DNA of 64,000 nt from Bacteroidaceae bacterium (GCA_045613565.1 JAZLBF010000035.1:1373-65372), one strand, 5' to 3'; positions 2,457 through 38,138 are shown, counted from the stretch's first letter. The notes: generated by a model not told the origin, from the sequence alone. Numbers and translations are program-made.

Positions 2457-2466
2457 ATAGACTTTC

Positions 2467-3645: not shown

Positions 3646-3653
3646 CAGTAGGA

Positions 3654-5144: not shown

Positions 5145-5199
5145 AGCTCTCAGTTTATAGAGTTTCAGGTATGCCCTTTCCGTTTTTACCTTCCCGTTT

Positions 5200-6525: not shown

Positions 6526-6640
6526 GTGGGCAAAGGTAAGAAAAAAAGTTGTACTTTTGCTTGTGAAAACTTGAATAAGTGATATTTAATGATCAAAAAC
6601 AAATAGAAACAATAAACAAAACCTCAACGATTCATTTCTT

Positions 6641-7117
6641 ATGAAGAAGATTTTTATGATTCTGCTCATGGCAGCTATTACCATTGGTGCTAAGGCACAG
6701 TTTGAGAAGGGTACACATTATCTTAATGCTTCGCTCACAGGTCTTGGCATAGGTTTCACTAAGGGCCACTTTACTCTAGGAGTATCTGGTGAATATGGTC
6801 ATTTCGTTAGCGATGGTTTGATGATTGGTGGTAGCGTGGGTTATACTCATCAAGGTGGTGCCAATAGTTTCCATATCAAGCCCAGCGTGCGTTACTCTTT
6901 CGCTGAGAATGGCTTGAATCTTGGTTGTGGTGTTCAGTTCGAGCACGCAGGAACAGCAGCTAATTTCATTCAACTTAGTCCTCAGGTAGGTTATACCTTC
7001 TATCTAAGCAATAAGGTAAGCATCGAGCCTGCTCTTTATGCCGACTTTGCTCTAAATGATTTCAAAAACGGTACCAACGCAGGCCTAAAGATTGGTATTG
7101 GTTTGTATAGAAAGTAA
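6641..7117 (+). CDS. Small outer-membrane beta-barrel protein (porin/OmpA-N-like family)
   Basis: Signal peptide ending AKAQ. Alternating hydrophobic/Gly-rich beta-strand pattern. 158 aa. Confidence 0.65.
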   Translation: MKKIFMILLMAAITIGAKAQFEKGTHYLNASLTGLGIGFTKGHFTLGVSGEYGHFVSDGLMIGGSVGYTHQGGANSFHIKPSVRYSFAENGLNLGCGVQFEHAGTAANFIQLSPQVGYTFYLSNKVSIEPALYADFALNDFKNGTNAGLKIGIGLYRK

Positions 7118-14900: not shown

Positions 14901-15001
14901 AATGTTTGGTGTTTTAATAAAGTGTATTTGTATTGTAAACTCATTTAGCAATCTTTATCACACAATCACATTCTGTGTTTGGTGTGCTTGGGGTGAGAGG
15001 C

Positions 15002-17227: not shown

Positions 17228-17256
17228 AGAATATTATTTTAGTTCAATAAAAAAGA

Positions 17257-17400
17257 TTACCACCCAATCTCTTCCTTTTCTGTATATTCTGGTAGAGGAG
17301 AGTCTCTTTTTGGTTCCATGTCCTCTTCTTTCTCACACGAAGTCAATGGCATCACTGTGATTGCCATCAATAGGAATAGATAAAAACAATTCTTCTTCAT
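17257..17400 (-). pseudogene. Truncated fifth copy of the paralogous lipoprotein family (47 codons; signal peptide plus unrelated tail)
   Basis: Translated by hand: MKKNCFYLFLLMAITVMPLTSCEKEEDMEPKRDSPLPEYTEKEEIGW*. Its first ~66 nt differ by one base from the 5' end of copy 2 (13605-13669). Confidence 0.55.
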
Positions 17401-17435
17401 ATTGTGACTATATATTAATTTATTGCTAACTTACA

Positions 17436-18548
17436 TTATTCTACTTTCTTTGTTGCTGCTGGGAAAATACGGATGTGCATATAACGATATTCGAATTGAT
17501 TCCACAGGCTACATGATACGTTGCATATCTTGCCTACCTCTTTGTCCAGGTCCAGGCATTTAATCTCATTTGCCTTCTTGTCATATCCGTTTAGCAGGAA
17601 CTCCATGTTGTTAGTTCCAGAACTGAAAAAACCGGCAGGTTTCCAGGAATAACCCAAAACCTCCATTTCGTCCAGCATTTTCTGCCATTTGTCATAGTGG
17701 GCGTGATAGAAGTCCAATACTTTTTGTGCCTCTTCCAAAGAAGAGAGAGCCTGATATATGGGATAGTCAATTTGACGTTTAACTTTTCTGATAAAGAAAT
17801 GAGTTGTGTTGGACTTTCCACCTTTTTCGGGAAGTAGCCACACCAGTATGGCCTCCTTGCCATTGTCATTACCCTGCAGGCAGTAAAAGTCGCGTTCCTC
17901 CCAGTTGACCAATGTCCAATAGTCGTCCAGTTCAATATCGGCTCCAGGCATCTCTGTCAATGGTGGGGAGTTGGTGTACATACAACATCCGAACTTGTAA
18001 AGCTTTCCTTCCTGATAGACGGGAATGGCATCGTTTTCGGGCCAGTGTTCGGTGTTGATGAACTGCACTTCCGATACTTGTTTCAGGGCAGTTCCGTTTG
18101 CTACTGTCATGCGAGCTATTACACCGTCTTTCTCCTCTACAGCGCGGAAGGATACGCTACCCTGAGCAATGCCATAGGCATCGGTGAGATTGTAGTCGTA
18201 ACCGCCCTCCACTTCTGTAACCTCCTTGCCAGGAGCTACCCAATCGAGGAAAGTCTTTTCGGCTGCAGCAAGGTCGCTAACGGGAAGCGAGATTACGGTT
18301 GGCTGCGACTCGTCCAAAGGCTTACCATTGATTCTTCTGATTACTTCATTCTTATCATCAACCAATACTATGCAGCCCTGCAACCATTCCAGGGCATCGT
18401 ATGCCTCTACTGCTGATTGGTCGGCATCCGATTCTGGATCATGTTTTATTATATCTTCTGGCTGAGGGATGTCTTCTTTATCGCACGATGTGAGTGGCAT
18501 CACTATTGATATTATCAACAGGAGCAGATAAAGCCAATTCTTATTCAT
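17436..18548 (-). CDS. Paralogous surface lipoprotein, family copy 4
   Basis: MNKNWLYLLLLIISIVMPLTSC. Same conserved N-terminal domain and C-terminal KCLDLD…YRYMHIRIFP motif. Confidence 0.8.
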   Translation of the reverse strand: MNKNWLYLLLLIISIVMPLTSCDKEDIPQPEDIIKHDPESDADQSAVEAYDALEWLQGCIVLVDDKNEVIRRINGKPLDESQPTVISLPVSDLAAAEKTFLDWVAPGKEVTEVEGGYDYNLTDAYGIAQGSVSFRAVEEKDGVIARMTVANGTALKQVSEVQFINTEHWPENDAIPVYQEGKLYKFGCCMYTNSPPLTEMPGADIELDDYWTLVNWEERDFYCLQGNDNGKEAILVWLLPEKGGKSNTTHFFIRKVKRQIDYPIYQALSSLEEAQKVLDFYHAHYDKWQKMLDEMEVLGYSWKPAGFFSSGTNNMEFLLNGYDKKANEIKCLDLDKEVGKICNVSCSLWNQFEYRYMHIRIFPAATKKVE

Positions 18549-24260: not shown

Positions 24261-26225
24261 ATGAAACTATCTTCCTGGGGTAAAAAAATATTAACATTTA
24301 TTGTGTTGATACAGGTAAGTTTTGCTTCGTTTGCTGCAGACGACCTCTTTCGTCAGGCTAGAGTGATGCAACACGATGGAAAATATGATGAAGCCATCGA
24401 AGCCTTTAAAAATTACCTTGTACAACCCGTTGCTGAGGAAGCGATGAACGATGATGTGCAAGCTATGTACATTGAGGCACTCTTGCAGATGATGAATACG
24501 TTTCAAAGTAAGGGAGCGCCAGATGCGTGCATTCCTTTCATGCAGGAGGCTTTCAATTCGTCACCTGTGCTCCAGAAGTATTGTCAGAGAGATTACTATT
24601 CTATACTAGGTTATGCTCTCTCTCGCACCGAAGATATGAAGCGAGCAGAGGAGACGATGCTCAAGGCACTGACCATGCCTTTGCATCATCCTACTCCACA
24701 GCGATATTTCCGTGACTATGCATACGCTGCGGCAGTGTTTTATAGCAATCCTGATTATCTGGACGAGGTAATTAACTGGTGCGAAGAGGCAATGAAGGAG
24801 GCGGATTTATGCAAAAATACCTCAGGTAAGCAATGGGTAACTGCTATGCTAGGCTCTTTGTATAAGAGAAAGGGTAGTCTCAACAAGGCTTTGGTTCTCT
24901 TTCAGCAGAGCAAGGAAGAATCCATGTTGAGAAATGATACTTTGGGTGTATTAAATAGCCTTCACTCCTTGATAGACCTCTTCCTCTACTGGGATATACC
25001 CGAATATGCCAATGTATATGCCTCTGAAGCTATACGAGTGGAGCAGAGTCTGAAGACAAACAATCCTATGGTGTCTGCACAAACCTATATCAATAAGGCA
25101 CGAGCCTTATATCAACTAGGTAAGGCTGATTCTACTCTCATCTATGTGGAGGAGGCTCGCAAGCGATGCCAATCTTTGCCCTACAATAGTGGTATGGTAG
25201 ATGTGAACTTGCTACATGGTACTCTGCTGACAGAGCTGGGAGGGGATACTATATATAAAGGTATAGAAGAATTGCAGATAGTAGCCCATCAAGCTACCTC
25301 CATCAATCGTGCAAAGGCTTACCACCAGTTGGCGCAAACATATTTGAAAGGTGCAGATAATCGCAAGGCAGAGGCGATGCTGGATAGTATGTACTATTTG
25401 CTCAATCAAGGAGGATCGCCCACCTTTATTCGTGTTGACTATCAACTCATACTCCGCTACTACTTGAAAAAGAAAAATCAAGCGAAGGCAGAGCAGTATC
25501 TGAGCATGATGCTAGAAGAGCAACAAGCGTTTAAGGAAAAGAAGTTGAACTACAATTTAGTGGAATACATAGTAAATCTACAGACCGAGAAAAAGAGACA
25601 GCAGCTGGAGATTTTGCATCTAGCGTATGCCAATGAGCGTCTCTGGCTCCTCGTTAGCATAGTCTTCTCACTTGTGGCTGTTTTTGTTATCGTATTATTG
25701 TTTGTAAAATACAGGAAGCACTATAAATTTCAGATAAGACAGGCAGACGAAAAACTATCGGCATTGCTTGAGAAGTTGAACCAGTCCAATGCTGAGAAGG
25801 AAATGAGGGCTCAGGAAATCAAGGAATTCTTGAGCGATAGGGACAATCACGAAGAATTCGAAGTACTTACCCCAACGCTACTTCAGACGGAGGGAGAATC
25901 AAAGTTCCGCCAATGTTTTGAGTTGCTTTATCCCCTCTTCCTCCCTCGTTTGCGTGACAGGATACCATCTGTTACCCGTCGTGAGGAGCTGTTGTCCATG
26001 CTCATCGTCTTGAAGCAAGATAACAAGAGGATAGCAGACTTGATGGCCATAGCTCCACGAAGCGTTTTGATGCTTCGTCATCGCTTCCGTCAAAAGATAG
26101 GAATGGCAACAGAGTATTCGCTAGACAATTTTATAGAAGACATTCTGTCCTCTGAAAATGCTCCAACTACCGCAACTGAGTCTGATGTGCCTTCACAAAC
26201 GGAAGAAAAGACCTCGCAGGTGTAA
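24261..26225 (+). CDS. TPR-repeat membrane-anchored regulator with C-terminal helix-turn-helix-like domain
   Basis: Signal peptide, long TPR-like region, one TM helix (LWLLVSIVFSLVAVFVIVLLFV), a coiled coil, and a C-terminal …REELLSMLIVLKQDNKRIADLMAIAPRSVLMLRHRFRQKIG resembling an HTH. Confidence 0.65.
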   Translation: MKLSSWGKKILTFIVLIQVSFASFAADDLFRQARVMQHDGKYDEAIEAFKNYLVQPVAEEAMNDDVQAMYIEALLQMMNTFQSKGAPDACIPFMQEAFNSSPVLQKYCQRDYYSILGYALSRTEDMKRAEETMLKALTMPLHHPTPQRYFRDYAYAAAVFYSNPDYLDEVINWCEEAMKEADLCKNTSGKQWVTAMLGSLYKRKGSLNKALVLFQQSKEESMLRNDTLGVLNSLHSLIDLFLYWDIPEYANVYASEAIRVEQSLKTNNPMVSAQTYINKARALYQLGKADSTLIYVEEARKRCQSLPYNSGMVDVNLLHGTLLTELGGDTIYKGIEELQIVAHQATSINRAKAYHQLAQTYLKGADNRKAEAMLDSMYYLLNQGGSPTFIRVDYQLILRYYLKKKNQAKAEQYLSMMLEEQQAFKEKKLNYNLVEYIVNLQTEKKRQQLEILHLAYANERLWLLVSIVFSLVAVFVIVLLFVKYRKHYKFQIRQADEKLSALLEKLNQSNAEKEMRAQEIKEFLSDRDNHEEFEVLTPTLLQTEGESKFRQCFELLYPLFLPRLRDRIPSVTRREELLSMLIVLKQDNKRIADLMAIAPRSVLMLRHRFRQKIGMATEYSLDNFIEDILSSENAPTTATESDVPSQTEEKTSQV

Positions 26226-26257: not shown

Positions 26258-26735
26258 CAATCCATTTTCATAGACCGTTGAAGTCTGTTTGTAGTATTAC
26301 AAACGCATTTCCGCAGATTGTTGAAGTCCCGTTGTAGTATTATAAACGCATTTCCGCAGACTGTTGAAGTCCCGTTGTAGCTTTACAAACGCATTTCCGC
26401 AGATTGTTGAAGTCTATTTGTAGTATTACAAACGTACTCCGCAGACTGTTAAAGTCCCGTTGTAGTATTACAAACGTACTCCGCAGACTGTTGAAGTCCC
26501 GTTGTAGTATTACAAACGCATTTCCGCAGACTGTTGAAGTCTGTTTGTAGTACTACAAACGCATTTCCGCAGACTGCTGAAGTCTGTTTGTTGTACTACA
26601 AACGCATTTCCGCAGACTGTTGAAGTCTGTTTGTAGCATTACAAACGCATTTCCGCAGACTGTTGAAGTCTGTTTGTAGTATTACAAACGCATTTCCGCA
26701 GACTGTTGAAGTCTATTTGTAGTACTACAAACGTC
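26258..26735. repeat. Tandem array, 43-bp period, about 11 copies (unit AAACGCATTTCCGCAGACTGTTGAAGTCTGTTTGTAGTATTAC)
   Basis: Period measured from AAACGCA at 26301 and 26344. Each unit junction forms the hairpin GTTTGTA-n4-TACAAAC. Two sub-variants are mixed (GTCCCGTTGTAG / GTCTGTTTGTAG; CGCATTTCC / CGTACTCC). Confidence 0.95.
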
Positions 26736-27181: not shown

Positions 27182-27330
27182 GTATCTAATTAGAGATTCG
27201 GAATTAGAGTCGAGCCAATAGAGTAGCATATAAATATAGTTACAGTAAATTGGACTATACTCGTCTATTATTAATTTATGTCTATAGAAATTGAGTAAAC
27301 ATAATTCTAAATAGTAGATTTTCTAATTCA

Positions 27331-28581
27331 ATGAAACGAAGTACACTATTACCATTCTTAGGGTTATTCATTATTAGTTGTAGTAGTGATATTAATTCTA
27401 TTCAGGACCCACATTTTACTGATGAAGGGTATTACATTAATGATACTACCCAGCAAGAACTAATTATTGAACAACCTAGTTCGATTAAATTTTATGTAGA
27501 GGTATCTGGCTCTATGAATGGTTTCTTTAGAGCAAACAAACCCACATATTTCAAAACCGATGTTTGGCAAATACTAAGTTATTACGCACCAATTGCCCCA
27601 GAGATAACCGTTTTGACTAATAGTGGCAATAGCGGAGCCACGTTAGATACAAATAGATTCCAAAACGAAATGAACACAGGAGCCTTTGTTTCACAGGCAT
27701 CTACAAAAGTTCCAGTTATGATTGAAACAATAACATCTAACCTGAATATAGAACAAGGAGAAGTTGCAGTTCTCATATCTGATATGAAGTATAGTCCCGT
27801 CGGTTCTGCTGCACCTGCAGTATTATCCGCACAGTATAGCACAGACATTAGTAGGATTTTAGGAAAATATAATAATGCGGTAAGTATGATTTGCGCAACC
27901 TCAAATTATCTAGCTGCAAATGGAAATGAAATCTGTCAGCGTTCACCATATTATTATGTAATTTTTGGAAACCCTAGTCAAGTAATAAACGTTAGGAATT
28001 GCATTTCAACATTACTTCAAGATAGAGGACACTTTGTTGATAACATAGAAAGCGGTATAAATTACGGTAAGCAAACATATTCATTTGGTTCTCCTATTTT
28101 ATGCGAACAATTAGACTGCGAACCAACATTCATAAACTACGAGGAACCAAATGAAGAATATGGAGATACTTGTACGATAAAACTTAGAATTGATTTGACT
28201 AAGTATCGCTGGATATTAGAAAACGAAAGTATTCTCAGGAATTCGCTAAACATTCAATCTATCTATGGTTCCGATATAGAAATAGGCAAAATATCATATG
28301 AAATAGATACGAAAAAAGACAAGGAACTTAAGCGAGAAGCTATAGCTACTGTAGAAATTAAAGTATATAATTTAGCAATAGACATGGATGTCCTCAAGTG
28401 GAACATTACTCTTCCTGATACAAACTACACTCTCTTCTACGAATTCTTTGATGGAGCAAACGATGAAAATGATGTAACTAAATCTTATTCTGTACAAGAT
28501 TTCATAAAAGGCATGTTCTACGGTGGTATTGTAAATACTCAACCATCAACTAATTATATATTGATTTCTAAAAACTACTAA
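27331..28581 (+). CDS. Lipoprotein with vWA-like N-terminal domain (system gene A)
   Basis: Lipobox FIISC. FYVEVSGSMNGF (27490-27525) resembles the MIDAS beta-strand/DxSGS motif with E in place of D. A later VAVLISDM strand is present. Confidence 0.6.
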   Translation: MKRSTLLPFLGLFIISCSSDINSIQDPHFTDEGYYINDTTQQELIIEQPSSIKFYVEVSGSMNGFFRANKPTYFKTDVWQILSYYAPIAPEITVLTNSGNSGATLDTNRFQNEMNTGAFVSQASTKVPVMIETITSNLNIEQGEVAVLISDMKYSPVGSAAPAVLSAQYSTDISRILGKYNNAVSMICATSNYLAANGNEICQRSPYYYVIFGNPSQVINVRNCISTLLQDRGHFVDNIESGINYGKQTYSFGSPILCEQLDCEPTFINYEEPNEEYGDTCTIKLRIDLTKYRWILENESILRNSLNIQSIYGSDIEIGKISYEIDTKKDKELKREAIATVEIKVYNLAIDMDVLKWNITLPDTNYTLFYEFFDGANDENDVTKSYSVQDFIKGMFYGGIVNTQPSTNYILISKNY

Positions 28582-28584
28582 TAT

Positions 28585-29031
28585 ATGAAAGGTGTTATTA
28601 AACTTTACGAATGGATTGCGGGCAATATGTCCGACTTTACTAAACAGTTTGAAGGAAATGAAAATCTTCAATCACAAGCAAGGAGTTTTTGGAGAAGCCT
28701 TGACAATTACTCTATTGTTAGTGTATTGATATTTGTAATAATAGCAATTGGTGTGGCCACTATGTATTACAAACCTTTTAACAATAAGCCAGGCAGACAT
28801 TACCTACCTAAATATTGGTTTATGTTTTGGTTAGTCTCATTTATTGTTTCATTGTTAGTGACATTTGGTCTTGAATATATTTGTTGTGAACCAAAATTAA
28901 ATGGTGCAACTCTTATCGAGTTTAAGATAGCATTAGCAAATGCTATATATACTGCATTGTTATTCTTATTTATATCAATAATTTGGTGTAATATTTTACC
29001 TACTAACGCTTATAGAATTTTCAAAATATAA
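28585..29031 (+). CDS. Small integral membrane protein, about 3 TM helices (system gene B)
   Basis: Hydrophobic segments IVSVLIFVIIAIGVATMYY, WFMFWLVSFIVSLLVTFGL and ALLFLFISIIWCNIL. 3-nt gap from gene A. Confidence 0.6.
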   Translation: MKGVIKLYEWIAGNMSDFTKQFEGNENLQSQARSFWRSLDNYSIVSVLIFVIIAIGVATMYYKPFNNKPGRHYLPKYWFMFWLVSFIVSLLVTFGLEYICCEPKLNGATLIEFKIALANAIYTALLFLFISIIWCNILPTNAYRIFKI

Positions 29032-29033
29032 TT

Positions 29034-30437
29034 ATGAAAAAGGTTTTTGTCTTTTGCATTGGAGGTACGGGCATTAGAGTAATGAAAAGCATTACTATGC
29101 TAATGGCTGGAGGTATGGATACCAATGGGTATATTGTTGTACCTATTATCCTCGACCCTCACTTGGATTTAGAAGAGAAAAAGAATCTTCATACACTTAT
29201 TGATAGCTATAGAACTATATATGAAAAATCTGTTGAAAACGGTTCTTCTAGGCTAAACCATTTAGAAGGTTTCTTTAATTCTGAAATCCGCACTATTTCA
29301 GACCTAAATAATACCACAAATGACACTCAACAGGTAGTTGGAAGTAACGAAAAATTTAGCCAGTACATTAATTTATCTAATATTGGGGCTAATAATATAA
29401 ATAATCACCTAGTATCTACTTTGTTTTCATCAAAGAACCTGAATAATCCATTGTCTGTAGGCTTTAAAGGAAATCCCAATATGGGAAGCGTAGTCTTGGG
29501 CAATATGATTGAGGGAGCTGATTGGTTTAAATCCTTTAAACAGCATTGCGAACAAGGAGACCGAGTTTTTATAATTAGTTCTATTTTTGGTGGAACTGGC
29601 GCATCTGGTTATCCTCTTTTAGAAAAAAAAATTAGGTTTGCTCAAAATGAACCTGCTGTAAAGAATGCTCTTATGGGAGCTGTTTCTGTCCTTCCATATT
29701 ATGGATTGAAAGACCCAGCGACTACAGGTAGTGACATAGATTCAGCAAATTTCTATACAAAGACTAAAGCCGCATTAGCATATTATCATGGTAATGTAAA
29801 ATCTGATTACTTATATTACATCGGAGAAAAACGCTTGATGCAGGTATATGAGAATGATGAAAGGAAACAGGACGACAAAGCCAATTTCGTTGAGCTTATT
29901 GCTGCTTCGGCTCTATTTGATTTCTTAAAAAGAGAAAAGCCAGATAGACAACAATTCTTAACTAGAGCTATTGAAGAAGACAAAGAATCACTTGACCTAA
30001 ATTCATTAGGCCGAGGATACAAAGATGTTATAAAAAGCGTCGCAGATTTCATGTTGTTACGAGCCATGGTTGATATTCTTCCTAGAGAGAAATATTTCCC
30101 ACTGATAAAAACATACAAGTTTGATGAAAAATTCTATAAAGATTCTGCTTTTGATTCACTTAGTCGATTTTCAAACATATACAACAATTGGTATTCAGAA
30201 TTAGCCACAAATAAGCGTGCATTTGCACCCTTACATCATGATAACTTAAAACAAATGAAAGGGTGGATTAAGGGAATGGTTTTAGATGCTCCTGACGATT
30301 CATATTATTTACTCAAAATGATTCAGGCAAGTAACCATAATTCAGTCGAAAAAGAGCACAACAATACTTTTAGGTTCTTCATGCAATTTGCACATGAAGC
30401 AATTAATTATTATACTAGTAAATTAAATAAACAATAA
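29034..30437 (+). CDS. Tubulin/FtsZ-superfamily-like GTPase (system gene C)
   Basis: N-terminal VFVFCIGGTGIRV (compare FtsZ IKVIGVGGGGGNAV). DRVFIISSIFGGTGASGYPLL (GGTGASG at 29589-29609) is near the tubulin signature [SAG]GGTG[SA]G and FtsZ DMVFITAGMGGGTGTGAAPV. Confidence 0.7.
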   Translation: MKKVFVFCIGGTGIRVMKSITMLMAGGMDTNGYIVVPIILDPHLDLEEKKNLHTLIDSYRTIYEKSVENGSSRLNHLEGFFNSEIRTISDLNNTTNDTQQVVGSNEKFSQYINLSNIGANNINNHLVSTLFSSKNLNNPLSVGFKGNPNMGSVVLGNMIEGADWFKSFKQHCEQGDRVFIISSIFGGTGASGYPLLEKKIRFAQNEPAVKNALMGAVSVLPYYGLKDPATTGSDIDSANFYTKTKAALAYYHGNVKSDYLYYIGEKRLMQVYENDERKQDDKANFVELIAASALFDFLKREKPDRQQFLTRAIEEDKESLDLNSLGRGYKDVIKSVADFMLLRAMVDILPREKYFPLIKTYKFDEKFYKDSAFDSLSRFSNIYNNWYSELATNKRAFAPLHHDNLKQMKGWIKGMVLDAPDDSYYLLKMIQASNHNSVEKEHNNTFRFFMQFAHEAINYYTSKLNKQ

Positions 30438-30438
30438 T

Positions 30439-33400
30439 ATGGGACGAATTGACCTTAATATAGTGGACCGTGGAATACAAGGTACAGATTGGATTGCAGA
30501 GGACATTGGCTTGACCACAGAGCATCTTGATAAGGTTATGGAAATGAAGACAGACAACAGTGGAGCCTTAAATTCATTACCTACACCTTTCGCACGCTTC
30601 TTTGTAGCCAAAGAAGCATTTAGGCGCGCAATGGAAGAGTATCTTGATAACAAAAAAGAAGCAGGTTTCGCTTATAAGCAACTAGTATCTGATATACTAG
30701 ATGTATATGAAATCCTGTTTAATCTCAAGTACCATACTAATAACACATGGAAAAACGGAGAAGGCATAGAACTTCGTGAATGGGATAGCGTAGGAAATCT
30801 CACATATTTAAAACAACAAATGCCAGTATTGTATAATTCGCTTAATGAATATTATAATACTGACATTAAACAAGAGAAATTATATTTTCTTGTCTACACA
30901 GAAGAAGGAAAAGACATTTTATTAGCATGTAGTTCTCCAATTACGGGTTTTGTAACACCGCCAGATTTAGACAAATCAATTGTTAAGAGAAACGGAGCTA
31001 CTGAATACGTGTTTGCAGGAGAACAATACAACGACCTCAACATTCAGCGAAAATCAGGAGGATTTTATTTCCAGGATATAAAAATGTTTGAAGAAAGAGA
31101 CCAAGATTTCAAAAACTATATGTTTAATGTACTTTTTGGCTCTGATGAAGTTAGCGAATCGTTTAAACCCTTAAAAGATTATATTCGAAGTTTTAAGAAT
31201 GACAAAGAAATTCGCAACGACTATAAGATAAAGTTGACTCCAGTAAAAACTGACCAGAATGCCAATTTGATTATCAACCAATTAGCCATTCTTTCTTGTA
31301 ACGAAATTGATATCAACAGTTATTTCAATAACACAATCATAAAAATACCGTATCGAATTTCTCGAAAAAAATTTGAGGCAGTTAAATATAAAAACGATGA
31401 CCCAAATAGAGAATATGATTTCTTATTCCCATTTAAACCTGAAGTACTAAATCTATTCAATAATAATGATATTGACTCCTATATAAATGTCAATAGAACT
31501 TCGGTGACTGTATACCTAAATTATAATGGCAAAGAGTATCATAAAGAATATTCTACTAATCCAACCAATAATCAGGGAAAAATCTATGAACTAAATGTCG
31601 CAAATATAAACTTTAATCTAGGAATATTCCCCAATATATTGTCATATCAAGAATCAGAAAATAATTACTTCAAGATTTTTGTATCTGCTGCGGATGAAGA
31701 CACAGAGGCCCCTAATTTCAGTATAGATAATCTTAGCCTCACTTTTTACAAAAGTAATGGTTCTAGCATTTATCTAATTAAGGAAATTGACCCGACAAAT
31801 GCAGAATTTGGCGTGCTCCCTGCTGTTGTACGCTCAAAACAAGTGAAGAATGGTATAGAATGTGGAACTAAGTTTTACGAATTATTCAATAGCTCCTTTG
31901 ATATTATAAATATCACATTATTTAACCAACATTCTGGTTTCATCATTCCTAAATGGGATAGAAGTATTGCAACCTCAGAACAATTTACATATGCGGTAGA
32001 CCTAGGAACATCTAATACGTTTATCTCACGTTGTAAAATTGGAGATAATAATAAGCCTGAGTTATTCAAGATGGAACAACCAATGGTTAGTTATCTTCAC
32101 GAAATTCCGGAAGACCAACAACTCTCATTGGTTAAACGTATTGAAAATTCTATTTTTGATAGAGCAAAGAATAAAGTTAAAACGGAGTTTGTTCCTGCGA
32201 TAATAGACGGAAAAGATTATAAATTTCCAATTCGCACTGCTCTCTGCGGTATAAAAAACAAATCACAAGCCCCAAAACTGTTTGATAATCACAACATTGC
32301 ATTCTTCTATGAAAAATCAATGTCCAATGATGACCAAGATGTTCATACAGACATTAAGTGGGACAAGAATGACTCTATGTTAAGGGTCTTTATCCGTGAA
32401 CTTTTACTGATTATAAAATGTGATGTTCTACAAAGAAATGGTGATTTAGATAGAACATCTCTAGTTTGGTTTAAACCCTTGAGTTTCATGGGTAATACCA
32501 GAAGTATGTATATTGATATTTGGAACGAAGAAGCCAGAAATATTCTTGCAATAAGTTCTGACAAAATACAATGTTTCTCAGAATCAGAAGCTCCTTATTA
32601 TTACTTTAAGAGGATGGATTACATTAAGGATTCTGATGCGGCTGCTGTCATAGACATAGGTGGCGGCTCAACAGATTTTGTTTACTTCCAAGATAATAAT
32701 CCTATCGTTGCCAATTCTGTTCATTTCGGCTGTGATGTTCTTTGGGGAAATGGGCTTATCGAATTTGAAGATGTACGTCAGAATGGTATATACAAAAAAT
32801 ATGAAAACACAATTAGATTCAGCAAAGAAGGACTACAAGAACTAAATGATTGCTTTATCAACGTGGATAATTCCACAACAAAGGATATAATAAATTTCTG
32901 GTTAAGCAATTCAAATTATTGTGACATCAAGAAAAGTCTAAGCAACGATTTCAAACCTGTATTTGTTTATCACTTAACGTCTATTTTATTCTATATGGCA
33001 AATATGCTAAAAGAATATAGTTATACGGCACCTCGAACAATCGTCTTCAGTGGAAATGGTAGTAGATATATAGATGATTTTATCTGTTCCGACAAGAGAA
33101 TTCTTAAGAAAATAATTGACCAAGTATTTGAGCAGGTATTTGGAGCGGATAATAACGTGCACGTTGTTCTACCAAGTGAACGTAAGGAATCTACATGCTA
33201 TGGAGGATTATACAGAGGTGCTAATGCAGAAGATGTACCAGAAAAGGTATACCAAGGTGATATAAGTTATAGTTATAAGACTGTAGGTGATATTAACAAT
33301 AATTTTGAACATATCAAATCAGTATTAATTTCTAAATATAATGAGCTAGGACGCTTGTATAAAGATATTCTTGAACTACTGAAAACTGAACGTATTATTG

Positions 33401-33582
33401 ATAATACAGATAACACCAGTGTCTATGTTGAGAAATCATTAGAAGACATGGGAGTAGACCTCTCAACCTATTATAAATCACAAATAAAAGAAAAATACCA
33501 AGAAGAAATCCCTCTCTATGAATCGATATTCTTTTTGCCTATTATAAAAAAAGTTTTTGAACTGACAAACCTGAAGCAATGA
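30439..33582 (+). CDS. 1047-aa protein: unknown N-terminal half plus C-terminal actin/Hsp70-fold (ASKHA) ATPase (system gene D)
   Basis: Phosphate-1 motif AVDLGTSNT (31999-32019), phosphate-2 motif VIDIGGGSTD (32653-32676) and adenosine-like motif IVFSGNGSRYI (33046-33066), in the canonical order and spacing. Confidence 0.7.
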   Translation: MGRIDLNIVDRGIQGTDWIAEDIGLTTEHLDKVMEMKTDNSGALNSLPTPFARFFVAKEAFRRAMEEYLDNKKEAGFAYKQLVSDILDVYEILFNLKYHTNNTWKNGEGIELREWDSVGNLTYLKQQMPVLYNSLNEYYNTDIKQEKLYFLVYTEEGKDILLACSSPITGFVTPPDLDKSIVKRNGATEYVFAGEQYNDLNIQRKSGGFYFQDIKMFEERDQDFKNYMFNVLFGSDEVSESFKPLKDYIRSFKNDKEIRNDYKIKLTPVKTDQNANLIINQLAILSCNEIDINSYFNNTIIKIPYRISRKKFEAVKYKNDDPNREYDFLFPFKPEVLNLFNNNDIDSYINVNRTSVTVYLNYNGKEYHKEYSTNPTNNQGKIYELNVANINFNLGIFPNILSYQESENNYFKIFVSAADEDTEAPNFSIDNLSLTFYKSNGSSIYLIKEIDPTNAEFGVLPAVVRSKQVKNGIECGTKFYELFNSSFDIINITLFNQHSGFIIPKWDRSIATSEQFTYAVDLGTSNTFISRCKIGDNNKPELFKMEQPMVSYLHEIPEDQQLSLVKRIENSIFDRAKNKVKTEFVPAIIDGKDYKFPIRTALCGIKNKSQAPKLFDNHNIAFFYEKSMSNDDQDVHTDIKWDKNDSMLRVFIRELLLIIKCDVLQRNGDLDRTSLVWFKPLSFMGNTRSMYIDIWNEEARNILAISSDKIQCFSESEAPYYYFKRMDYIKDSDAAAVIDIGGGSTDFVYFQDNNPIVANSVHFGCDVLWGNGLIEFEDVRQNGIYKKYENTIRFSKEGLQELNDCFINVDNSTTKDIINFWLSNSNYCDIKKSLSNDFKPVFVYHLTSILFYMANMLKEYSYTAPRTIVFSGNGSRYIDDFICSDKRILKKIIDQVFEQVFGADNNVHVVLPSERKESTCYGGLYRGANAEDVPEKVYQGDISYSYKTVGDINNNFEHIKSVLISKYNELGRLYKDILELLKTERIIDNTDNTSVYVEKSLEDMGVDLSTYYKSQIKEKYQEEIPLYESIFFLPIIKKVFELTNLKQ

Positions 33583-35201
33583 GTATAAGCATAATTATTT
33601 CTATCGTTACATCTACGCTATTTATTAGCGCACAATATTACTTTTTTAGAGATACCAGAAAATATAGGATACTATTTCAAAACTTCTTCAAAAAAGTAAA
33701 ACCCTACTCTATTTCTAGACAAAGGGAAGGGAGCATTTATGATGACGAGCCTAATACATGTGATTACGTACAACTAGAACTTGTTGGCACCGAAGAATCT
33801 GATTTAAATAACCTAATCCGAGAAATAAATAATTATATCTTAAAAACAAAAGGAACTACAGATTTCTCTGTAATTCAAAATAAGGTGGAACGCAAACTGA
33901 ACATGAGGTATGACCAGTCTACTGCTAGATTATCCTTCCCTACCTATTTTGGATTATTAGGAACATTCTTTGGAGTATTCATCGGTATTTCATCATTTGT
34001 TTTAGAGTTCGATAGTAGCAATATTACAGACGATGCAATTATTGGACTTCTCGCCGGTGTACTAGTTTCTATGATAACTAGTTTATGTGGTTTGGGGTTT
34101 ACTACATATAATAACTTTCATTCTGGTGGCGCAAGGAAACAAATTGAAGAGGATAAGAATGAGTTTTATGATTTCATCCAAACGGAATTAATGCCTACTA
34201 TTGATGTAAGCATGGTGGCAGCAATCACAAAACTTCATGATACTGTAGACAAATTCGAACCTGCATTTGAACGTGTAATAAATAAATTTCAAACTACTTT
34301 CGACAAGTGCACTGATGCATTTGGTAAAAATTTTGAAAAGAATGTTTCGATTGTCACTGATGCTGTTGATATTATGGGTAGAAACATGGATAAAATCAAC
34401 CATAATATTAATTTACAAGAGAATTTATTGTCGACACTCAAGAGCGGAGAACTTATAGATGGCATGGAAAAATATATCCAAGCAGCAAATCACTTTGGTG
34501 GCATAACGCAATCTCTGAATAAGTTTGAAGAAGCAAGAAGAATGATGTTAGCTGCAACACAAGAAACTATTACAATGCAACAACAATACTCCGAGTCGTT
34601 AAAGATTCCTCGTGAAACAGCAATTAAAATTAATCAAATTCTTGACAGAATAAAAACATTTGAAAATAATATAAATATACTCGGAGAGCAAATTGCACAG
34701 CGAGAAATTTTAGGAAATGAAATTATTAATATCATAAAATCTCAGGTAGATGGTATTGCTAAAAAGGGCAAAATTGCTGACAAATATCTAGGAGTGGCTG
34801 ATGGAAAGCTAGAAGATTTATTTAAAAAGCAATCAGAAGTAATTGATTCTATGAACCATAAATATGGTTCTGCATTAGAAAAACATTTAATTGGATTTGA
34901 AAAGATTTTGGAAGACCACGAAAAGGAAATTATTTCTCGCCGAAATGCCTTCATGGCTGCAATTGAAAACAAGTTATCTATAGAAGATGTCCACCAAGAT
35001 TTCTCCAATCTCAAAAAGTTAAATGACATTAATAAAAATCTATCGGAAATAGCATCTACTTCTATTAAACTTGAAAATTTACATGACGAGATAAAATTAC
35101 TTCAATCTGAATTTACTCAGATAAGAGAGAGTATCGACAATTTAAATAAAGTGAAAGAAGAAGCTAAAAGTAGATGGAATATCTTTGGAGGAGGTAAGTA
35201 A
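33579..35201 (+). CDS. MotA/ExbB/TolQ-like membrane protein with ~340-aa coiled-coil C-terminal tail, a ZorA-like architecture (system gene E)
   Basis: YFGLLGTFFGVFIG (GLLGT at 33951-33965) and GLLAGVLVSMITSLCGLGFTTYNNF match the two conserved TM helices of ExbB/TolQ (…GLLGTV.G… / …T..GL…YN.F). The rest is heptad-rich and charged. Its ATG overlaps the gene D stop (ATGA). Confidence 0.7.
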   Translation: MSISIIISIVTSTLFISAQYYFFRDTRKYRILFQNFFKKVKPYSISRQREGSIYDDEPNTCDYVQLELVGTEESDLNNLIREINNYILKTKGTTDFSVIQNKVERKLNMRYDQSTARLSFPTYFGLLGTFFGVFIGISSFVLEFDSSNITDDAIIGLLAGVLVSMITSLCGLGFTTYNNFHSGGARKQIEEDKNEFYDFIQTELMPTIDVSMVAAITKLHDTVDKFEPAFERVINKFQTTFDKCTDAFGKNFEKNVSIVTDAVDIMGRNMDKINHNINLQENLLSTLKSGELIDGMEKYIQAANHFGGITQSLNKFEEARRMMLAATQETITMQQQYSESLKIPRETAIKINQILDRIKTFENNINILGEQIAQREILGNEIINIIKSQVDGIAKKGKIADKYLGVADGKLEDLFKKQSEVIDSMNHKYGSALEKHLIGFEKILEDHEKEIISRRNAFMAAIENKLSIEDVHQDFSNLKKLNDINKNLSEIASTSIKLENLHDEIKLLQSEFTQIRESIDNLNKVKEEAKSRWNIFGGGK

Positions 35202-35203
35202 CT

Positions 35204-36010
35204 ATGGATGGTAAAAGTAATGGTTCCTTTTGGCCAAGCTACGTAGATATAATGACGACATTATTTGCCATTATGCTCGTTTTATTTGTAGTATCCTTCT
35301 GTCGATTTAAAGTTAAGGAAAAAGAGCAACAAGAAACAATGGATATGCTACAAGCACTTGTTGACGAATATGAAAACATAATCACGGTATATTCAACAGT
35401 GGGTTCTATTGATTCAACTAAATATTTTGGATACGATGAAACATACCTAAAGCACCTGTTTACAGTCGACGTTGAGTATCAAACTCAAGGTTATCGTATT
35501 GCAGACCAATTAAAACTTGACAACATAGATAAGAATGCTGCAAACGAAAAACGCAGTGACATTCTAGCTGCAGGTAATCTCATCAAAGAGACTATACTAA
35601 AACTAGAAAACAATGAATCTATTGATAATAACATTAAGTTTCTTGTAGTTATTGAAGGTCAGGCCTCTAGAGTTAGATTTAATGACGGAGATTGGTACAA
35701 CAACTATACACTATCCTACCTAAGAGCTAGATTTATTAATGATTATTGGAAACAAAACGGAATTAATCTTGACGAAATTCCTCGATGTGAGCTTATAATC
35801 TCTGGAAGTGGTGAAGGTGGAGTACCAAGAATCATCCCTGATGAACATGCGCTGCATATGAAGTATCCAGACCCAATAGACTATAATAAAAATTGGATTG
35901 CAACAGAAGAAAAAAATCAACGTTTTCTTATTCATATAGTACCCGTTATTGGAAACATTGATGTAACAAAAGATAAAATTGAACAAATCAAGTCTCACAC
36001 AAACAAATAA
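35204..36010 (+). CDS. MotB/OmpA-like protein, ZorB-like (system gene F)
   Basis: N-terminal FWPSYVDIMTTLFAIMLVLFVV matches the MotB TM/plug (W..YADFMTAMMAFFL), including the conserved Asp (35246-35248). The C-terminal VVIEGQASRV…NNYTLSYLRA is a divergent OmpA_C-like peptidoglycan-binding pattern. Confidence 0.7.
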   Translation: MDGKSNGSFWPSYVDIMTTLFAIMLVLFVVSFCRFKVKEKEQQETMDMLQALVDEYENIITVYSTVGSIDSTKYFGYDETYLKHLFTVDVEYQTQGYRIADQLKLDNIDKNAANEKRSDILAAGNLIKETILKLENNESIDNNIKFLVVIEGQASRVRFNDGDWYNNYTLSYLRARFINDYWKQNGINLDEIPRCELIISGSGEGGVPRIIPDEHALHMKYPDPIDYNKNWIATEEKNQRFLIHIVPVIGNIDVTKDKIEQIKSHTNK

Positions 36011-36034
36011 TTGTCACATGATTATATTTTGAAA

Positions 36035-36562
36035 ATGGATGACAAATTTAACTTATTTATAGATGATAGTTCGTATATTGATTTTCGTCAGTCAATCATA
36101 GACTCTCCCGTCTTAACATATGACAAAAGTAAACTTCCTTTTGAAAATATCTTTTATCCCCCCAAAAAATATCCTACGCAACTTAAGAATATCGTAAAAT
36201 CATTAATACCAGTACACTATTATTTAAATAGGCATTTGTTTTATCTCAACAAGAAAGGAATCTGTCGAGCACATGGATATTATATTCCTGAAACAAAAAG
36301 GTTTGTAATATGCATGGGAAGTCTTCTATGTACATCGGTGAATAGCGAATATGAAAAAAGTAATTCAGGAAGTTTACGTGCATATCATATACAACATGCA
36401 TGTGAAAAATATCCAAATTATTATGTAGTTAAAAAAAATATAATATGTCTTTCTCCAACATCTGCGGCTTCATATGTTTTAGGCAGAGTAGCTCGATATA
36501 CTGATTGGAAAGATGAAAACGGAGATACTTTAGACAAGTTTTACGCATATAAATTCGTATAG
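36035..36562 (+). CDS. DUF4357-like protein (system gene G)
   Basis: …RAHGYYIPETKRFVICMGSLL…LSPTSAASYVLGRVARYTDWKDENGDTLDKFY resembles the DUF4357 pattern (…V.kGS…SPSaAA..vlGr..NG…WK…G.tL), from memory. The ATG at 36035 is preferred over the TTG at 36011. Confidence 0.5.
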   Translation: MDDKFNLFIDDSSYIDFRQSIIDSPVLTYDKSKLPFENIFYPPKKYPTQLKNIVKSLIPVHYYLNRHLFYLNKKGICRAHGYYIPETKRFVICMGSLLCTSVNSEYEKSNSGSLRAYHIQHACEKYPNYYVVKKNIICLSPTSAASYVLGRVARYTDWKDENGDTLDKFYAYKFV

Positions 36563-36637
36563 AAAATAAACTCATATCTTGCAATTATAATATTCAATTG
36601 AGAAGTTATTAATGCACCTTTCCTACCACACTAAACA

Positions 36638-36673
36638 AAATCTCCGTGAGGGAATAGCCCTTCACGGAGATTT
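36638..36673. terminator. Bidirectional hairpin AAATCTCCGTGA-n12-TCACGGAGATTT between convergent genes
   Basis: 12-bp perfect stem flanked by A-run and T-run, read directly. Confidence 0.7.
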
Positions 36674-36705
36674 GTTTGTATAACTATTTGTTTGATTATG
36701 ATTCA

Positions 36706-37944
36706 CTAATTCAGGAGGTAATCAAATACATTCATCATTATAATGCCATTGGGAGTAGTATGCGTTGGTATGTCATCTGTTGTAATAATAATTTTTATAA
36801 ATGAGTCGTCCGTAAGGGTTAGTGAGCGTTGCTCCTGCTTCTGTTTATCTTCGTCAGGTAAAGAATAAGCTGATTGTATATATACTCTTTCACTACCTTT
36901 ATTACAAACGAAATCTATTTCGAGTGTAGCTCTAGTGGTCTTACCTTCATCATCTTTTTGATAGGATGTAACGCATCCCACATCCACTTTATAACCATTA
37001 CCTATCAGATGGTTATATATAATATTCTCCATAATATGGGTAGGCTCCACTTGACGGAAATTCAAAAGTGCATTACGCAACCCAAGGTCAGCAAAATAAT
37101 ATTTATATGGAGTGTCTATATACGTCTTTCCTTTAATGTCATAGCGGACCGCTTTAGCAATAAGGAATGAGTCTATGAAATAGTCTATATAAGTTTTTAC
37201 TGTATTATGGCTTATTTTCACCTTTTTCTCACTAACAAATGTGTTTGCTAGTTTGTTTGGATTAGTTAATGCTCCAATATTTGATGCCAAGAGGCTGAAT
37301 AATTCTTCTAATTCCGCATCATTTTTTACATTATTACGGTTGATTATATCACTTAAATAAGTCTCTTTTAGCAAATCCTGGAGTATTTCTGCTTTTCGCG
37401 CCTTGTCCTTCTCCATGACTACCATTGGTAGACCTCCGTAATAAATGTAATCTCGCCACAATGAAGAGGTTTCCTCATCTGACTTTTCTTTTATTTCCTT
37501 AAACGACAGCGGTTGAAGATGGATCTGAGCTCCGCGTCCTCTGAACTCAGTAACAATATCTGAAGAAAGGAATTTCGCATTACTTCCAGTTATATATACA
37601 TCTAGATTCTCTATACGCAGGAAACCATTAAGCACATCAACAAAACTCTCCAACATCTGGACTTCATCAATCATCACATAATACATCTGTGAATCTTGCT
37701 TTGTCTGATTTTCGACATATTCATATAGAGTTTCTGCACTACGATATTTACGGTGTACAAATGAGTCAAGTTGTAATTCAATGATATGACTAGCATCAAC
37801 ACCATTATCTAAAAGATGTTGCTTATAAAGGTTGAATAGAAGATACGATTTACCAACGCGACGTAACCCAGTAACAATCTTTATCAAATGATTATGCTTG
37901 CTACTTATCAACTTATCAATATAAAGTTGTCTTTCGAATTTCAT
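36706..37944 (-). CDS. AAA-family ATPase with DUF4143-type C-terminal domain
   Basis: N-terminal …KIVTGLRRVGKSYLL (P-loop-like), DEVQ Walker-B-like motif, and overall organisation typical of the widespread Bacteroidota 'ATP-binding protein/DUF4143' family. Confidence 0.75.
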   Translation of the reverse strand: MKFERQLYIDKLISSKHNHLIKIVTGLRRVGKSYLLFNLYKQHLLDNGVDASHIIELQLDSFVHRKYRSAETLYEYVENQTKQDSQMYYVMIDEVQMLESFVDVLNGFLRIENLDVYITGSNAKFLSSDIVTEFRGRGAQIHLQPLSFKEIKEKSDEETSSLWRDYIYYGGLPMVVMEKDKARKAEILQDLLKETYLSDIINRNNVKNDAELEELFSLLASNIGALTNPNKLANTFVSEKKVKISHNTVKTYIDYFIDSFLIAKAVRYDIKGKTYIDTPYKYYFADLGLRNALLNFRQVEPTHIMENIIYNHLIGNGYKVDVGCVTSYQKDDEGKTTRATLEIDFVCNKGSERVYIQSAYSLPDEDKQKQEQRSLTLTDDSFIKIIITTDDIPTHTTPNGIIMMNVFDYLLN

Positions 37945-37947
37945 ATA

Positions 37948-38138
37948 GAGACAATTTTTGTGTATTTACACACTTTTCGTCTACAAAGATAGTTATTTAA
38001 TCATGAAATAGCCTTAACACTGGAGACAATTTCTGTGTATTTACACACTTTTTGTCAATAGAGATAGTTATTTTATCATAAAATAGCCTTAACCCTGGAG
38101 ACAATTTCTGTGTATTTACACACTTTTTGTCAATAGAG
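37948..38138. repeat. 75-bp tandem repeat, about 2.5 copies; each copy carries a minus-strand TATCTTTG promoter box and the palindrome TGTGTAttTACACA
   Basis: Unit starts (GAGACAAT) are at 37948, 38023 and 38098. The array begins 4 nt upstream of the AAA ATPase start codon. Confidence 0.9.

Follow-up and report, generated by a model that had tools for sequence, protein, structure and literature searches.

Throughout all domains of life, cytoskeletons rest on two classes of NTPase, one with an actin fold and one with a tubulin fold. In the characterized systems known to us they work as separate polymers, and we know of no MreB or ParM whose gene is paired with, or fused to, that of a tubulin-like protein. 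The magnetosome island encodes the actin-like MamK together with the tubulin-like FtsZm. Operons in which FtsZl1 (Pfam Tubulin_2) is combined with vWA and OmpA/MotB genes were predicted to form a 'membrane remodelling system' (Makarova and Koonin, 2010; PMC2875224). DO-GTPase/GAP1 conflict systems may include tubulin or HSP70 components and also feature vWA proteins, with trypsin-like peptidases and FGS domains among their effectors; a given system has either the tubulin or the HSP70 theme, without overlap, both themes depend on DO-GTPase and GAP1, and a link to MotAB/ZorAB is not described there (Kaur, Burroughs, Iyer and Aravind, 2020; PMC7159879). Phage defense by Zorya requires ion flow, peptidoglycan binding and the ZorA tail (PMC11890865), and two reports on Myxococcus Agl-Glt describe a MotAB-like motor, MreB and the vWA outer-membrane lipoprotein CglB (PMC9946355, PMC11761067). 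Here we analyzed a 64,000 nt stretch of DNA from a Bacteroidaceae bacterium (GCA_045613565.1 JAZLBF010000035.1:1373-65372; hereafter the window, with positions counted from its first letter), in which a gene named g4 directly follows the tubulin-like gene g3 within a cassette of seven genes, g1 to g7.

The closest relatives of this cassette are, apart from Zorya, systems that have been predicted only, namely the FtsZl1 operons and the NTPase conflict systems. An obligate and sometimes covalent pairing of a tubulin fold with an actin fold has no characterized precedent. No description of such a pair was found in the literature, Pfam, NCBIfam or PADLOC, which agrees with the original prediction for this locus, made without database searches, that no characterized bacterial system contains an adjacent pair of this kind.

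The g4 protein and its predicted ATPase domain

The features of g4 are listed below; invariance refers to a family alignment (A1) of 53 sequences reaching down to 22% identity.

30439..33582, + strand: g4, central open reading frame; ATG start, 1047 residues, predicted cytoplasmic; N-terminal orphan region followed by a predicted ASKHA ATPase domain
30571..31203, + strand: g4 residues 45-255; LNSLPTPFARF (residues 44-54), then an alpha/beta module; S84, D88 and R220 invariant
31204..31980, + strand: g4 residues 256-514; beta-rich region by AlphaFold2 secondary structure, with weak generic Ig-like beta-sandwich likeness
31981..33273, + strand: g4 residues 515-945; predicted actin/MreB/Hsp70-type ASKHA nucleotide-binding domain with insertions, from Foldseek and PDB profile matches
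31984..32025, + strand: phosphate-1 motif FTYAVDLGTSNTFI, residues 516-529; D521, G523 and T524 invariant
32638..32688, + strand: phosphate-2 motif AAAVIDIGGGSTDFVYF, residues 734-750; D739, G741-G743 and D746 invariant
33037..33075, + strand: adenosine motif TIVFSGNGSRYID, residues 867-879; G872 and S875 invariant
33274..33582, + strand: g4 residues 946-1047; C-terminal helical bundle in the AlphaFold2 model; stop codon overlapping the g5 start

The reading frame for a giant protein is present as first described, and so are its two junctions: a single base separates the g3 stop codon (TAA, 30435-30437) from the g4 ATG at 30439, and the g4 stop codon (TGA, 33580-33582) overlaps the g5 ATG at 33579 in an ATGA arrangement. 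The 1 nt gap suggests that g3 and g4 are co-translated. A word-indexed search returned 414 homologues, the best 120 of which are all full length (1032-1062 residues, at least 63% identity); those listed come mostly from gut metagenomes and Bacteroidales metagenome-assembled genomes. In an exhaustive search of 1.84 billion representatives, the family comprised 826 clusters that reach E<=1e-3, 433 of them with E<=1e-30, counted as representatives at 50% identity. The best 150 of the 826 clusters are mostly 1000-1350 residues long, and the remainder of these are fragments on short contigs. g4 founds a large family without earlier description, whose members are frequent in Prevotella, Paraprevotella, Phocaeicola and Muribaculaceae of the human gut.

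The original prediction had itself named the possibility that two genes were joined by a sequencing frameshift, and beyond this general possibility nothing speaks for an artefact, be it a frameshift or chance motifs in an AT-rich reading frame. Full-length homologues in hundreds of independent assemblies, together with the lengths of the best clusters, exclude a frameshift fusion. The 826 clusters, the invariance of the motif residues and one confident AlphaFold2 model over the whole chain leave an artefact of either kind with a negligible probability.

Searches with the g4 sequence alone recognized the phosphate-2 region only (Pfam Ppx-GppA, E=3e-4, and FtsA, 0.03; NCBIfam exopolyphosphatase, 7e-6; PDB exopolyphosphatase, 0.12), and therefore the ASKHA claim needed evidence from the family and from structure. 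The residues D521, G523, T524, E715, D739, G741-G743, D746, G872 and S875 are invariant in A1, E715 lying within FSESEAPYYY ahead of the phosphate-2 motif. When compared with the PDB, the A1 profile matched MreB (7bvy, E=3e-5), exopolyphosphatase, FtsA, the actin-family protein 8r2n and Hsp70, and these matches cover phosphate-1 and phosphate-2 in register and in the correct order. The AlphaFold2 model computed from A1 (mean pLDDT 88.2, pTM 0.75), in which disorder is confined to residues 1-43, gave 764 Foldseek matches in the PDB at E<=1e-3. The top matches are MreB structures (7zpu, 1jce and 4czg; E of ~3e-9, probability 1.0, TM-score 0.5-0.59 on the target). Next come ParM (6ixw, 6izr), BeeR (8r2n), eukaryotic actins and DnaK nucleotide-binding domains (5obv), likewise with probability 1.0. 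The model and these matches agree with the ASKHA fold of two RNase-H-like subdomains around a nucleotide cleft; subdomain I is enlarged such that ~180 residues separate phosphate-1 from E715. The phosphate-1, phosphate-2 and adenosine motifs follow one another in the canonical order with their conserved acidic residues.

Given the Foldseek matches to MreB, ParM, actin and DnaK, the modeled residues ~515-945 almost certainly form an ASKHA domain of the actin/MreB/Hsp70 branch. With its catalytic motif set intact, g4 is predicted to be a cytoplasmic ATPase. The proposed MreB/ParM/Hsp70-like core with large insertions is thereby borne out by the model, the Foldseek search and the PDB profile alike; as for the motif positions given at the outset, phosphate-1 was placed correctly, while phosphate-2 and the adenosine motif were each off by one residue.

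The motifs of g4 (DLGTxNT, ExxAP, DIGGGxTD and GxG(S/A)) are very MreB-like, and its best Foldseek and PDB profile matches fall in the MreB/ParM/actin group. g4 is three times larger than these proteins: it extends ~510 residues further at the N-terminus, has insertions in subdomain I and ends in a helical bundle. Its gene, unlike those of MreB or ParM, adjoins or is fused with one for a tubulin-like protein. Pfam MreB_Mbl gave no match for g4 itself and matched 6 of 24 relatives, at best with E=1e-3 and under the gathering score. Pfam HSP70 matched neither g4 nor the relatives tested. The beta-sandwiches of g4 stand N-terminal to the ATPase domain, unlike the order of nucleotide-binding domain, substrate-binding domain and lid in Hsp70/DnaK, and no DnaJ or GrpE was found among the cassette genes with Pfam.

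The N-terminal half is conserved in its own right, with a near-invariant LNSxPSPFAR motif at residues 44-54 and with S84, D88, R220 and P331 invariant in A1. Residues 1-514, modeled separately, reached a pLDDT of 87.0 and comprise the alpha/beta module (residues ~50-255) and the beta-rich region (residues ~265-510). Foldseek searches of the PDB and BFVD found no specific fold for the N-terminal ~510 residues: residues 1-514 returned generic Ig-like beta-sandwiches only (E of ~1e-3, TM-score at most 0.16 on the query), and the alpha/beta module (residues 45-255) matched no known fold. The ~500-residue region thus remains the orphan that it was first taken for, confidently modeled and with a generic Ig-like likeness alone.

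Pairing of g4 with a tubulin-like protein

The gene directly upstream of g4 is the following.

29034..30437, + strand: g3, 467-residue FtsZ/tubulin-superfamily GTPase-like protein, from motifs and Pfam/PDB matches

The g3 motifs IGGTGIRV and SSIFGGTGASGYP are invariant in the family (general forms IGGTGxRV and SSIFGGTGASG). Pfam Tubulin matched seven of eight family members and Tubulin_2 five of the eight, all below threshold, and the family profile matched 3zid, a CetZ-type 'tubulin/FtsZ GTPase', in the PDB (E=1e-3). By its signature motifs and these sub-threshold Pfam and CetZ matches, g3 is assigned to the FtsZ/tubulin superfamily at the level of sequence, which supports the tubulin-like gene reported directly 5′ of g4.

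We scanned 31 loci (L001-L031) with the cassette profiles. A tubulin-like gene lies directly upstream of the g4-like gene, or is fused to it, in 30 of them, including loci of Prevotella oral taxon 299, Pedobacter and cyanobacterial plasmids. The sole exception is L029, where a Mu-like transposase (730 residues), an AAA-type ATPase (304 residues) and a LexA/CI-like repressor (265 residues) occupy the site of g1-g3 (2131-6721), and the cassette appears to have been truncated by a transposable-phage-like element.

In many bacteria the two proteins are one polypeptide. The N-terminus of P0229 (1554 residues) aligns to g3 (36% identity, E=2e-38) and the remainder to g4. A search with P0229 retrieved 59 other clusters of 1197-1694 residues with identities to P0229 as low as 24%, which stem from numerous independent contigs, the longest of 652 kb; several carry a precomputed Pfam Tubulin_2 (PF13809) match. 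Both profiles match in 58 of the 59 clusters, that of g3 over the N-terminal ~500 residues (E=1e-75 to 1e-119) and that of g4 with E=1e-87 to 1e-250, over its full length in almost all 58. At least 58 clusters therefore encode the pair as one polypeptide of 1500-1650 residues, the proteins compared with both profiles being 1470-1690 residues long. The phosphate-1 motif is kept in 58 of 58 fusions and the phosphate-2 motif in nearly all. Judged from these sequences, the g3-g4 fusion is recurrent and ancient, and it is the strongest evidence that both proteins act as one unit. g3 and g4 are very probably coupled in function. They most likely constitute one heteromeric NTPase module, for which we infer a physical complex. 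The pairing goes beyond the single adjacent gene pair first noticed in that it is family-wide and includes natural fusions, and the operon around it has a gene order in common with the FtsZl1 operons (PMC2875224).

The cassette compared with described systems

Around the g3-g4 pair, the cassette contains the following features.

27331..28581, + strand: g1, 416-residue lipoprotein; signal peptide with a lipobox (...FIISC); conserved in first position at 29 of 31 loci
28585..29031, + strand: g2, 148-residue inner-membrane protein with three predicted transmembrane segments (hydropathy scan)
33579..35201, + strand: g5, 540-residue ZorA-like protein; three MotA/ExbB-type transmembrane segments and a ~350-residue coiled-coil tail
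35204..36010, + strand: g6, 268-residue ZorB/MotB-like protein; one transmembrane segment and an OmpA-like peptidoglycan-binding domain
36011..36562, + strand: g7, 183-residue variable last gene; DUF4357 C-terminal domain; resembles PADLOC candidate PDC-S14
36638..36673, no strand assigned: hairpin with a 15 bp stem between g7 and the convergent gene; probable operon terminator

The operon consists of seven + strand genes with g4 in the fourth position, separated by intergenic gaps of 3, 2, 1, -4, 2 and 0 nt, and the hairpin downstream of g7 is probably its terminator. Neither a signal peptide nor a transmembrane segment is predicted in g3 or g4, which places both in the cytoplasm; all components other than g3, g4 and g7 are predicted to be membrane or periplasmic proteins. 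Wherever gene calls were inspected, a small gene of ~110-185 residues separates the g1-like gene from the tubulin-like one. The g1 family has a motif, (E/D)xS(G/A)SM ... ILxSD, that is reminiscent of the metal-ion-dependent adhesion site (MIDAS) of vWA domains (alignment A4). A vWA identity of g1 was not supported, as Pfam gave no vWA match in eight members and the PDB profile search was empty; we keep the MIDAS-like motif as a hint at the level of the motif.

The gene behind g4 had been called MotA-like, which is right as to the type of motor; more exactly, it is ZorA-like, with a ZorB-like gene next to it downstream. The best PDB match of the g5 family profile (A6) is 8VVN_C (E=4.5e-6, over the transmembrane region and tail), and 8QYH also matches. 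8VVN is the Shewanella type I ZorAB complex, in which chain C is ZorA (PMC11890865), and 8QYH is E. coli ZorA. NCBIfam ZorA_2 matched g5 with E=1e-6 and 27.9 bits against a cutoff of 100. The transmembrane segment of g6 holds Asp15 (FWPSYVDIMT), and the motif IEGxxS...SYxRA is also present. PADLOC ZorB matched g6 with E=9e-8, and the g6 profile (A7) matched ZorB (8QYD_F, 6e-5), MotB (6YKP) and 8VVN_B (8e-4) in the PDB.

In seven loci from Bacteroidales genomes (L001-L007), the order g1-g7 is kept wherever the contig reaches. Identity to the window genes is highest for g3 (75-85%) and g4 (64-80%) and lowest for g7 (25-56%), and the flanks bear no relation to the DNA on either side of the cassette in the window. 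The g1-g2-g3-g4 core is found in distant relatives as well, in Prevotella oral taxon 299 (25% identity), Picosynechococcus plasmids (22%), Pedobacter lithocola and several metagenomic contigs. ZorA-like and ZorB-like genes follow the core in ~21 of 31 loci and are absent despite ample downstream DNA in five (L008, L009, L010, L027 and L030), so that the motor is not essential to the function of the core. The accessory genes past the motor vary: they encode DUF4357 proteins, a protein with transmembrane segments and a receiver domain (L010) or small coiled-coil proteins (L008, L011, L013, L027, L030 and L031).

The likeness to Zorya lies in the motor. g5 combines a MotA-type transmembrane domain with a long coiled-coil tail and g6 a transmembrane Asp with a peptidoglycan-binding domain, both corresponding to ZorA and ZorB in architecture and profile matches, and the variable nuclease-type accessory genes of the cassette recall ZorE (PMC11890865). 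No PADLOC or NCBIfam match to ZorC, ZorD, ZorE, ZorF or ZorG was obtained for g1-g4 or g7. Unlike in Zorya, the motor genes are located at the operon end and the g1-g4 core also occurs without ZorAB, and g5 and g6 score far under the NCBIfam ZorA and ZorB cutoffs.

The FtsZl1 operons of Deinococcus and Anabaena share the order of the cassette: a ~420-residue protein, a small transmembrane protein, a tubulin-like protein, a MotA-like protein and an OmpA/MotB-like protein, with g5 and g6 in the same order as DR_0537/DR_0536. vWA genes are typical of these operons; in the cassette, g1 has a MIDAS-like motif but no vWA match in Pfam or the PDB profile search. The match of g3 to Tubulin_2 is weak (E=0.82); the best among the five matching relatives is 6.8e-5, and faint matches occur in L010, L015, L017 and L018. 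FtsZl1 proteins are single polypeptides of ~1070 residues for which neither an ASKHA domain nor an ASKHA partner is mentioned (PMC2875224). Homology to the D. deserti FtsZl1 operon (L016) was rejected, since phmmer, hmmsearch and hhalign were negative for g1-g6 except for the GGT signature (probability 1.9).

With the DO-GTPase systems, the cassette shares a predicted conflict role, NTPases of the tubulin and HSP70 superfamilies, transmembrane proteins and variable effectors. In L030, which lacks ZorAB, a Trypsin-like protease and an FGE-sulfatase are encoded directly after the fused tubulin-ASKHA gene (14737-17857), in parallel with components of those systems. Membership in the DO-GTPase/GAP1 group was discarded: no P-loop GTPase was detected in g1-g7, DO-GTPase and GAP1 genes are absent, and neither was called in the related loci. 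The magnetosome island and Agl-Glt resemble the cassette in that an actin-like protein occurs with a tubulin-like protein, or with a MotAB-like motor and a vWA lipoprotein. Unlike g3 and g4, their genes are neither adjacent nor fused, and they show no family-level homology to the pair; they serve vertically inherited organelle or motility machines, in contrast to a cassette in a low-GC island.

Possible functions and genomic setting

The cassette, which is widespread in gut Bacteroidales, is probably an accessory system for defense or for the cell envelope. From the computed fold of g4, its intact catalytic motifs, the pairing or fusion with a tubulin-like protein, the composition of the cassette and its island-like behavior, we infer an envelope-anchored, proton-motor-coupled conflict (anti-phage) system with a tubulin-like/actin-like NTPase core, to which we assign a probability of about 0.5. 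In such a system, the g1 lipoprotein would face the periplasm and the g2 protein with its three transmembrane segments would sit in the inner membrane. In most Bacteroidota versions, g5 and g6 would add a ZorA/ZorB-like proton-driven motor, presumably with the 5:2 stoichiometry of ZorAB, anchored to peptidoglycan and provided with a long cytoplasmic tail. These membrane components (g1, g2 and the motor) might detect when the envelope is disturbed, for example by an adsorbing or injecting phage, and the signal would reach the g3-g4 module via the ZorA-like tail, g2 or both. Binding and hydrolysis of GTP and ATP would then drive a higher-order assembly at the membrane, either a polymer or an oligomeric switch. 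The assembly could itself block or sequester the invader or remodel the membrane, or could instead recruit and license the variable effector, be it a DUF4357 protein, a nuclease or a protease.

Several observations favor a role in conflict: the low GC content, the differing chromosomal contexts of close homologues, a neighboring gene of the PDC-S01 type, the PDC-S14-like g7, and the motor proteins g5 and g6, which among solved structures match anti-phage ZorAB best. The L011 cassette lies between an integrase gene and McrBC plus type I restriction-modification genes, a WYL regulator gene is found in L018 and a Fic gene in L007, and the variable accessory genes encode Endonuclease_NS or Trypsin and FGE-sulfatase. 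Other observations weigh against this interpretation. Recognizable defense neighbors occur in ~3-4 of ~10 loci with long flanks, many loci are situated among genes for glycoside hydrolases, nonribosomal peptide synthetases or regulators, and several have metabolic neighbors only. Five loci carry the core without ZorAB, no curated model for g1-g4 exists in PADLOC, NCBIfam or Pfam, the vWA nature of g1 lacks profile support, and g3 is placed in its superfamily from sequence with Pfam matches below threshold. The large extra domains flanking the ASKHA core of g4 could block actin-like longitudinal contacts, and polymerization of g3 or g4 is hypothetical. A defense role as such is accordingly tentative and falls slightly short of an even chance, the guilt by association behind it being moderate rather than strong. 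It is conceivable but doubtful that the tubulin-like GTPase and the actin-fold ATPase make up one composite machine, cytoskeletal or switch-like, in which members of the two great superfamilies of NTPase filaments form a heteropolymer or co-assemble, in some bacteria as one chain. A proton-driven, ZorAB-like rotary motor would trigger it at the membrane, and it would be a new class of immune or envelope-surveillance system.

It is rather unlikely that the cassette is instead a housekeeping-type machine for remodeling of the envelope or membrane (vesicles, movement of surface proteins, envelope maintenance), with the tubulin-like and actin-like proteins as its track or scaffold and the MotAB-like motor as the source of force. 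The same proposal was made for the FtsZl1/vWA/OmpA operons, and those of Deinococcus and Anabaena have the same gene order (PMC2875224). The cassette also resembles Myxococcus Agl-Glt, all of its proteins apart from g3, g4 and g7 are assigned to the membrane or periplasm, and many loci have no defense neighbors. Such a machine is, however, hard to reconcile with an island of low GC content, insertion sites that differ among loci and a last gene that varies (nuclease, protease or DUF4357 protein), with g5 and g6 matching ZorAB better than flagellar, Tol or Gld motors, or with the lack of detectable sequence similarity to the proteins of the Deinococcus FtsZl1 operon. If g4 were an Hsp70-like chaperone or assembly factor, its beta-sandwiches would bind a client, the tubulin-like protein or an invader protein, which ATP hydrolysis would remodel, a mechanism that has been proposed for HSP70 components in the GTPase-centric conflict systems. 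DnaK nucleotide-binding domains are indeed among the Foldseek and PDB profile matches, beta-sandwich domains are present within the g4 chain, and HSP70 and tubulin components are both predicted in the DO-GTPase conflict systems (PMC7159879). This role is nevertheless unlikely, as MreB and ParM outrank DnaK in both sequence-profile and fold searches, the Pfam HSP70 match, the Hsp70-type arrangement of substrate-binding domain and lid, and DnaJ and GrpE genes are all missing, and the DO-GTPase and GAP1 genes that define GTPase-centric systems are absent.

A kinship with SrfB, which we regard as a lead from Pfam profile comparison, would make g4 a remote SrfB relative and the cassette an SrfABC-type toxin or virulence complex delivered to other cells. 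The UniRef label of a Pedobacter homologue (P0145) is 'Virulence factor SrfB', and one relative out of 24 (P0245) matches Pfam SrfB (PF07520) at phosphate-2 with E=0.064, over 18 residues at profile positions 561-578 of 992. SrfB, encoded by 3021 bp, is of comparable size and belongs to a complex that also contains SrfA and SrfC (PMC6950479), and srfABC is flanked by genes for vWA proteins and FGE/SUMF1-type formylglycine-generating enzyme (bioRxiv 10.64898/2026.09.18.752743), just as an FGE-sulfatase gene is present in L030. Set against this, the window protein and the other 23 relatives have no Pfam SrfB match even at E=1, neither SrfA/SrfC homologues nor an NCBIfam Srf match was found, and the partners of g4 are a tubulin-like protein, a lipoprotein and ZorAB-like proteins in place of SrfA and SrfC. 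Moreover, g3 and g4 have no signal peptide or transmembrane segment and the cassette contains no secretion apparatus. An SrfABC-type role as a whole is very improbable. A tblastn search of plasmids with P0245 found no SrfB.

Whichever function the cassette serves, one actin-fold and one tubulin-fold NTPase are tightly coupled in it, as a single polypeptide in many bacteria and usually linked to a ZorAB-type motor. If the pair assembles jointly, it would offer a new model for the cooperation of both folds, a handle on how a signal passes from ZorAB-type motors to the cytoplasm and possibly a new, abundant defense system of the gut microbiota. Should the pair prove to be a composite machine, it would be the first system in which a tubulin fold and an actin fold operate as one obligate unit. 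For the FtsZl1-like operons, uncharacterized since 2010, g4 provides a partner with a testable predicted active site (D521, D739).

The GC content is 33% across 28-38 kb of the window and 42-47% in its flanks. This low-GC island (~27300-38100) lies between a gene for a regulator with tetratricopeptide-repeat and helix-turn-helix-type domains (24261-26225) and housekeeping genes, which encode a class IV aminotransferase, the exonuclease VII large subunit and a resistance-nodulation-division efflux operon. Neither a tRNA gene nor an integrase gene was found at its edges. Within the same island and convergent with the cassette, g8 (36706-37944, - strand) encodes a 412-residue ATPase (AAA_14 + DUF4143), for which the PADLOC candidate defense gene PDC-S01 scored E=1e-114; elsewhere g8 is not conserved beside the cassette. 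A scan of 24-39 kb with Rfam gave no match, and a sigma-70 promoter scan returned counts equal to the shuffle expectation, the sigma-70 consensus not being valid for Bacteroidota promoters. In the 1.1 kb non-coding gap 5′ of the cassette, a 43 bp tandem repeat (26272-26733) comprises 10.8 copies with 90% matches of the unit AGACTGTTGAAGTCTGTTTGTAGTATTACAAACGCATTTCCGC, each with two small palindromes; it has no Rfam match and is absent from the 18 related loci examined.

Eleven IMG/VR contigs carry the cassette, and the flanks of one of them, L020, match unannotated virome fragments only. A phage origin was ruled out by a tblastn search of 50,697 phage records, which gave no match, together with the L020 flanks and the Mu-like junction in L029. 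These negatives and the transposase junction identify the cassette as host cargo beside mobile elements and not as a phage gene set.

Endonuclease_NS genes recur just past the cassette, at 16173-17048 in L001 (Pfam 1e-49), at 9209-9682 in L014 and at ~15235-15537 in L019 and L021. The L014 protein has a lipoprotein-type signal, and the recurrence suggests an exported nuclease as an optional effector. The motor genes vary as well. In L015, the ZorB-like protein (12932-13576) has Gly in place of the conserved transmembrane Asp (FWPGFVGLLT compared with FWPSYVDIMT), and judging from this substitution the motor may be unable to conduct protons. Three IMG/VR contigs (L022, L023 and L025) encode a tandem pair of ZorB-like paralogues after the ZorA-like gene (for example, 14008-15396 in L022). 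On the Picosynechococcus PCC 7003 plasmid (L009, 10668-14518), the position of the Bacteroidota ZorAB-like genes is occupied by those for three paralogous membrane/coiled-coil proteins, which match one another with phmmer E-values down to 1e-99 and share a repeated C-terminal domain.

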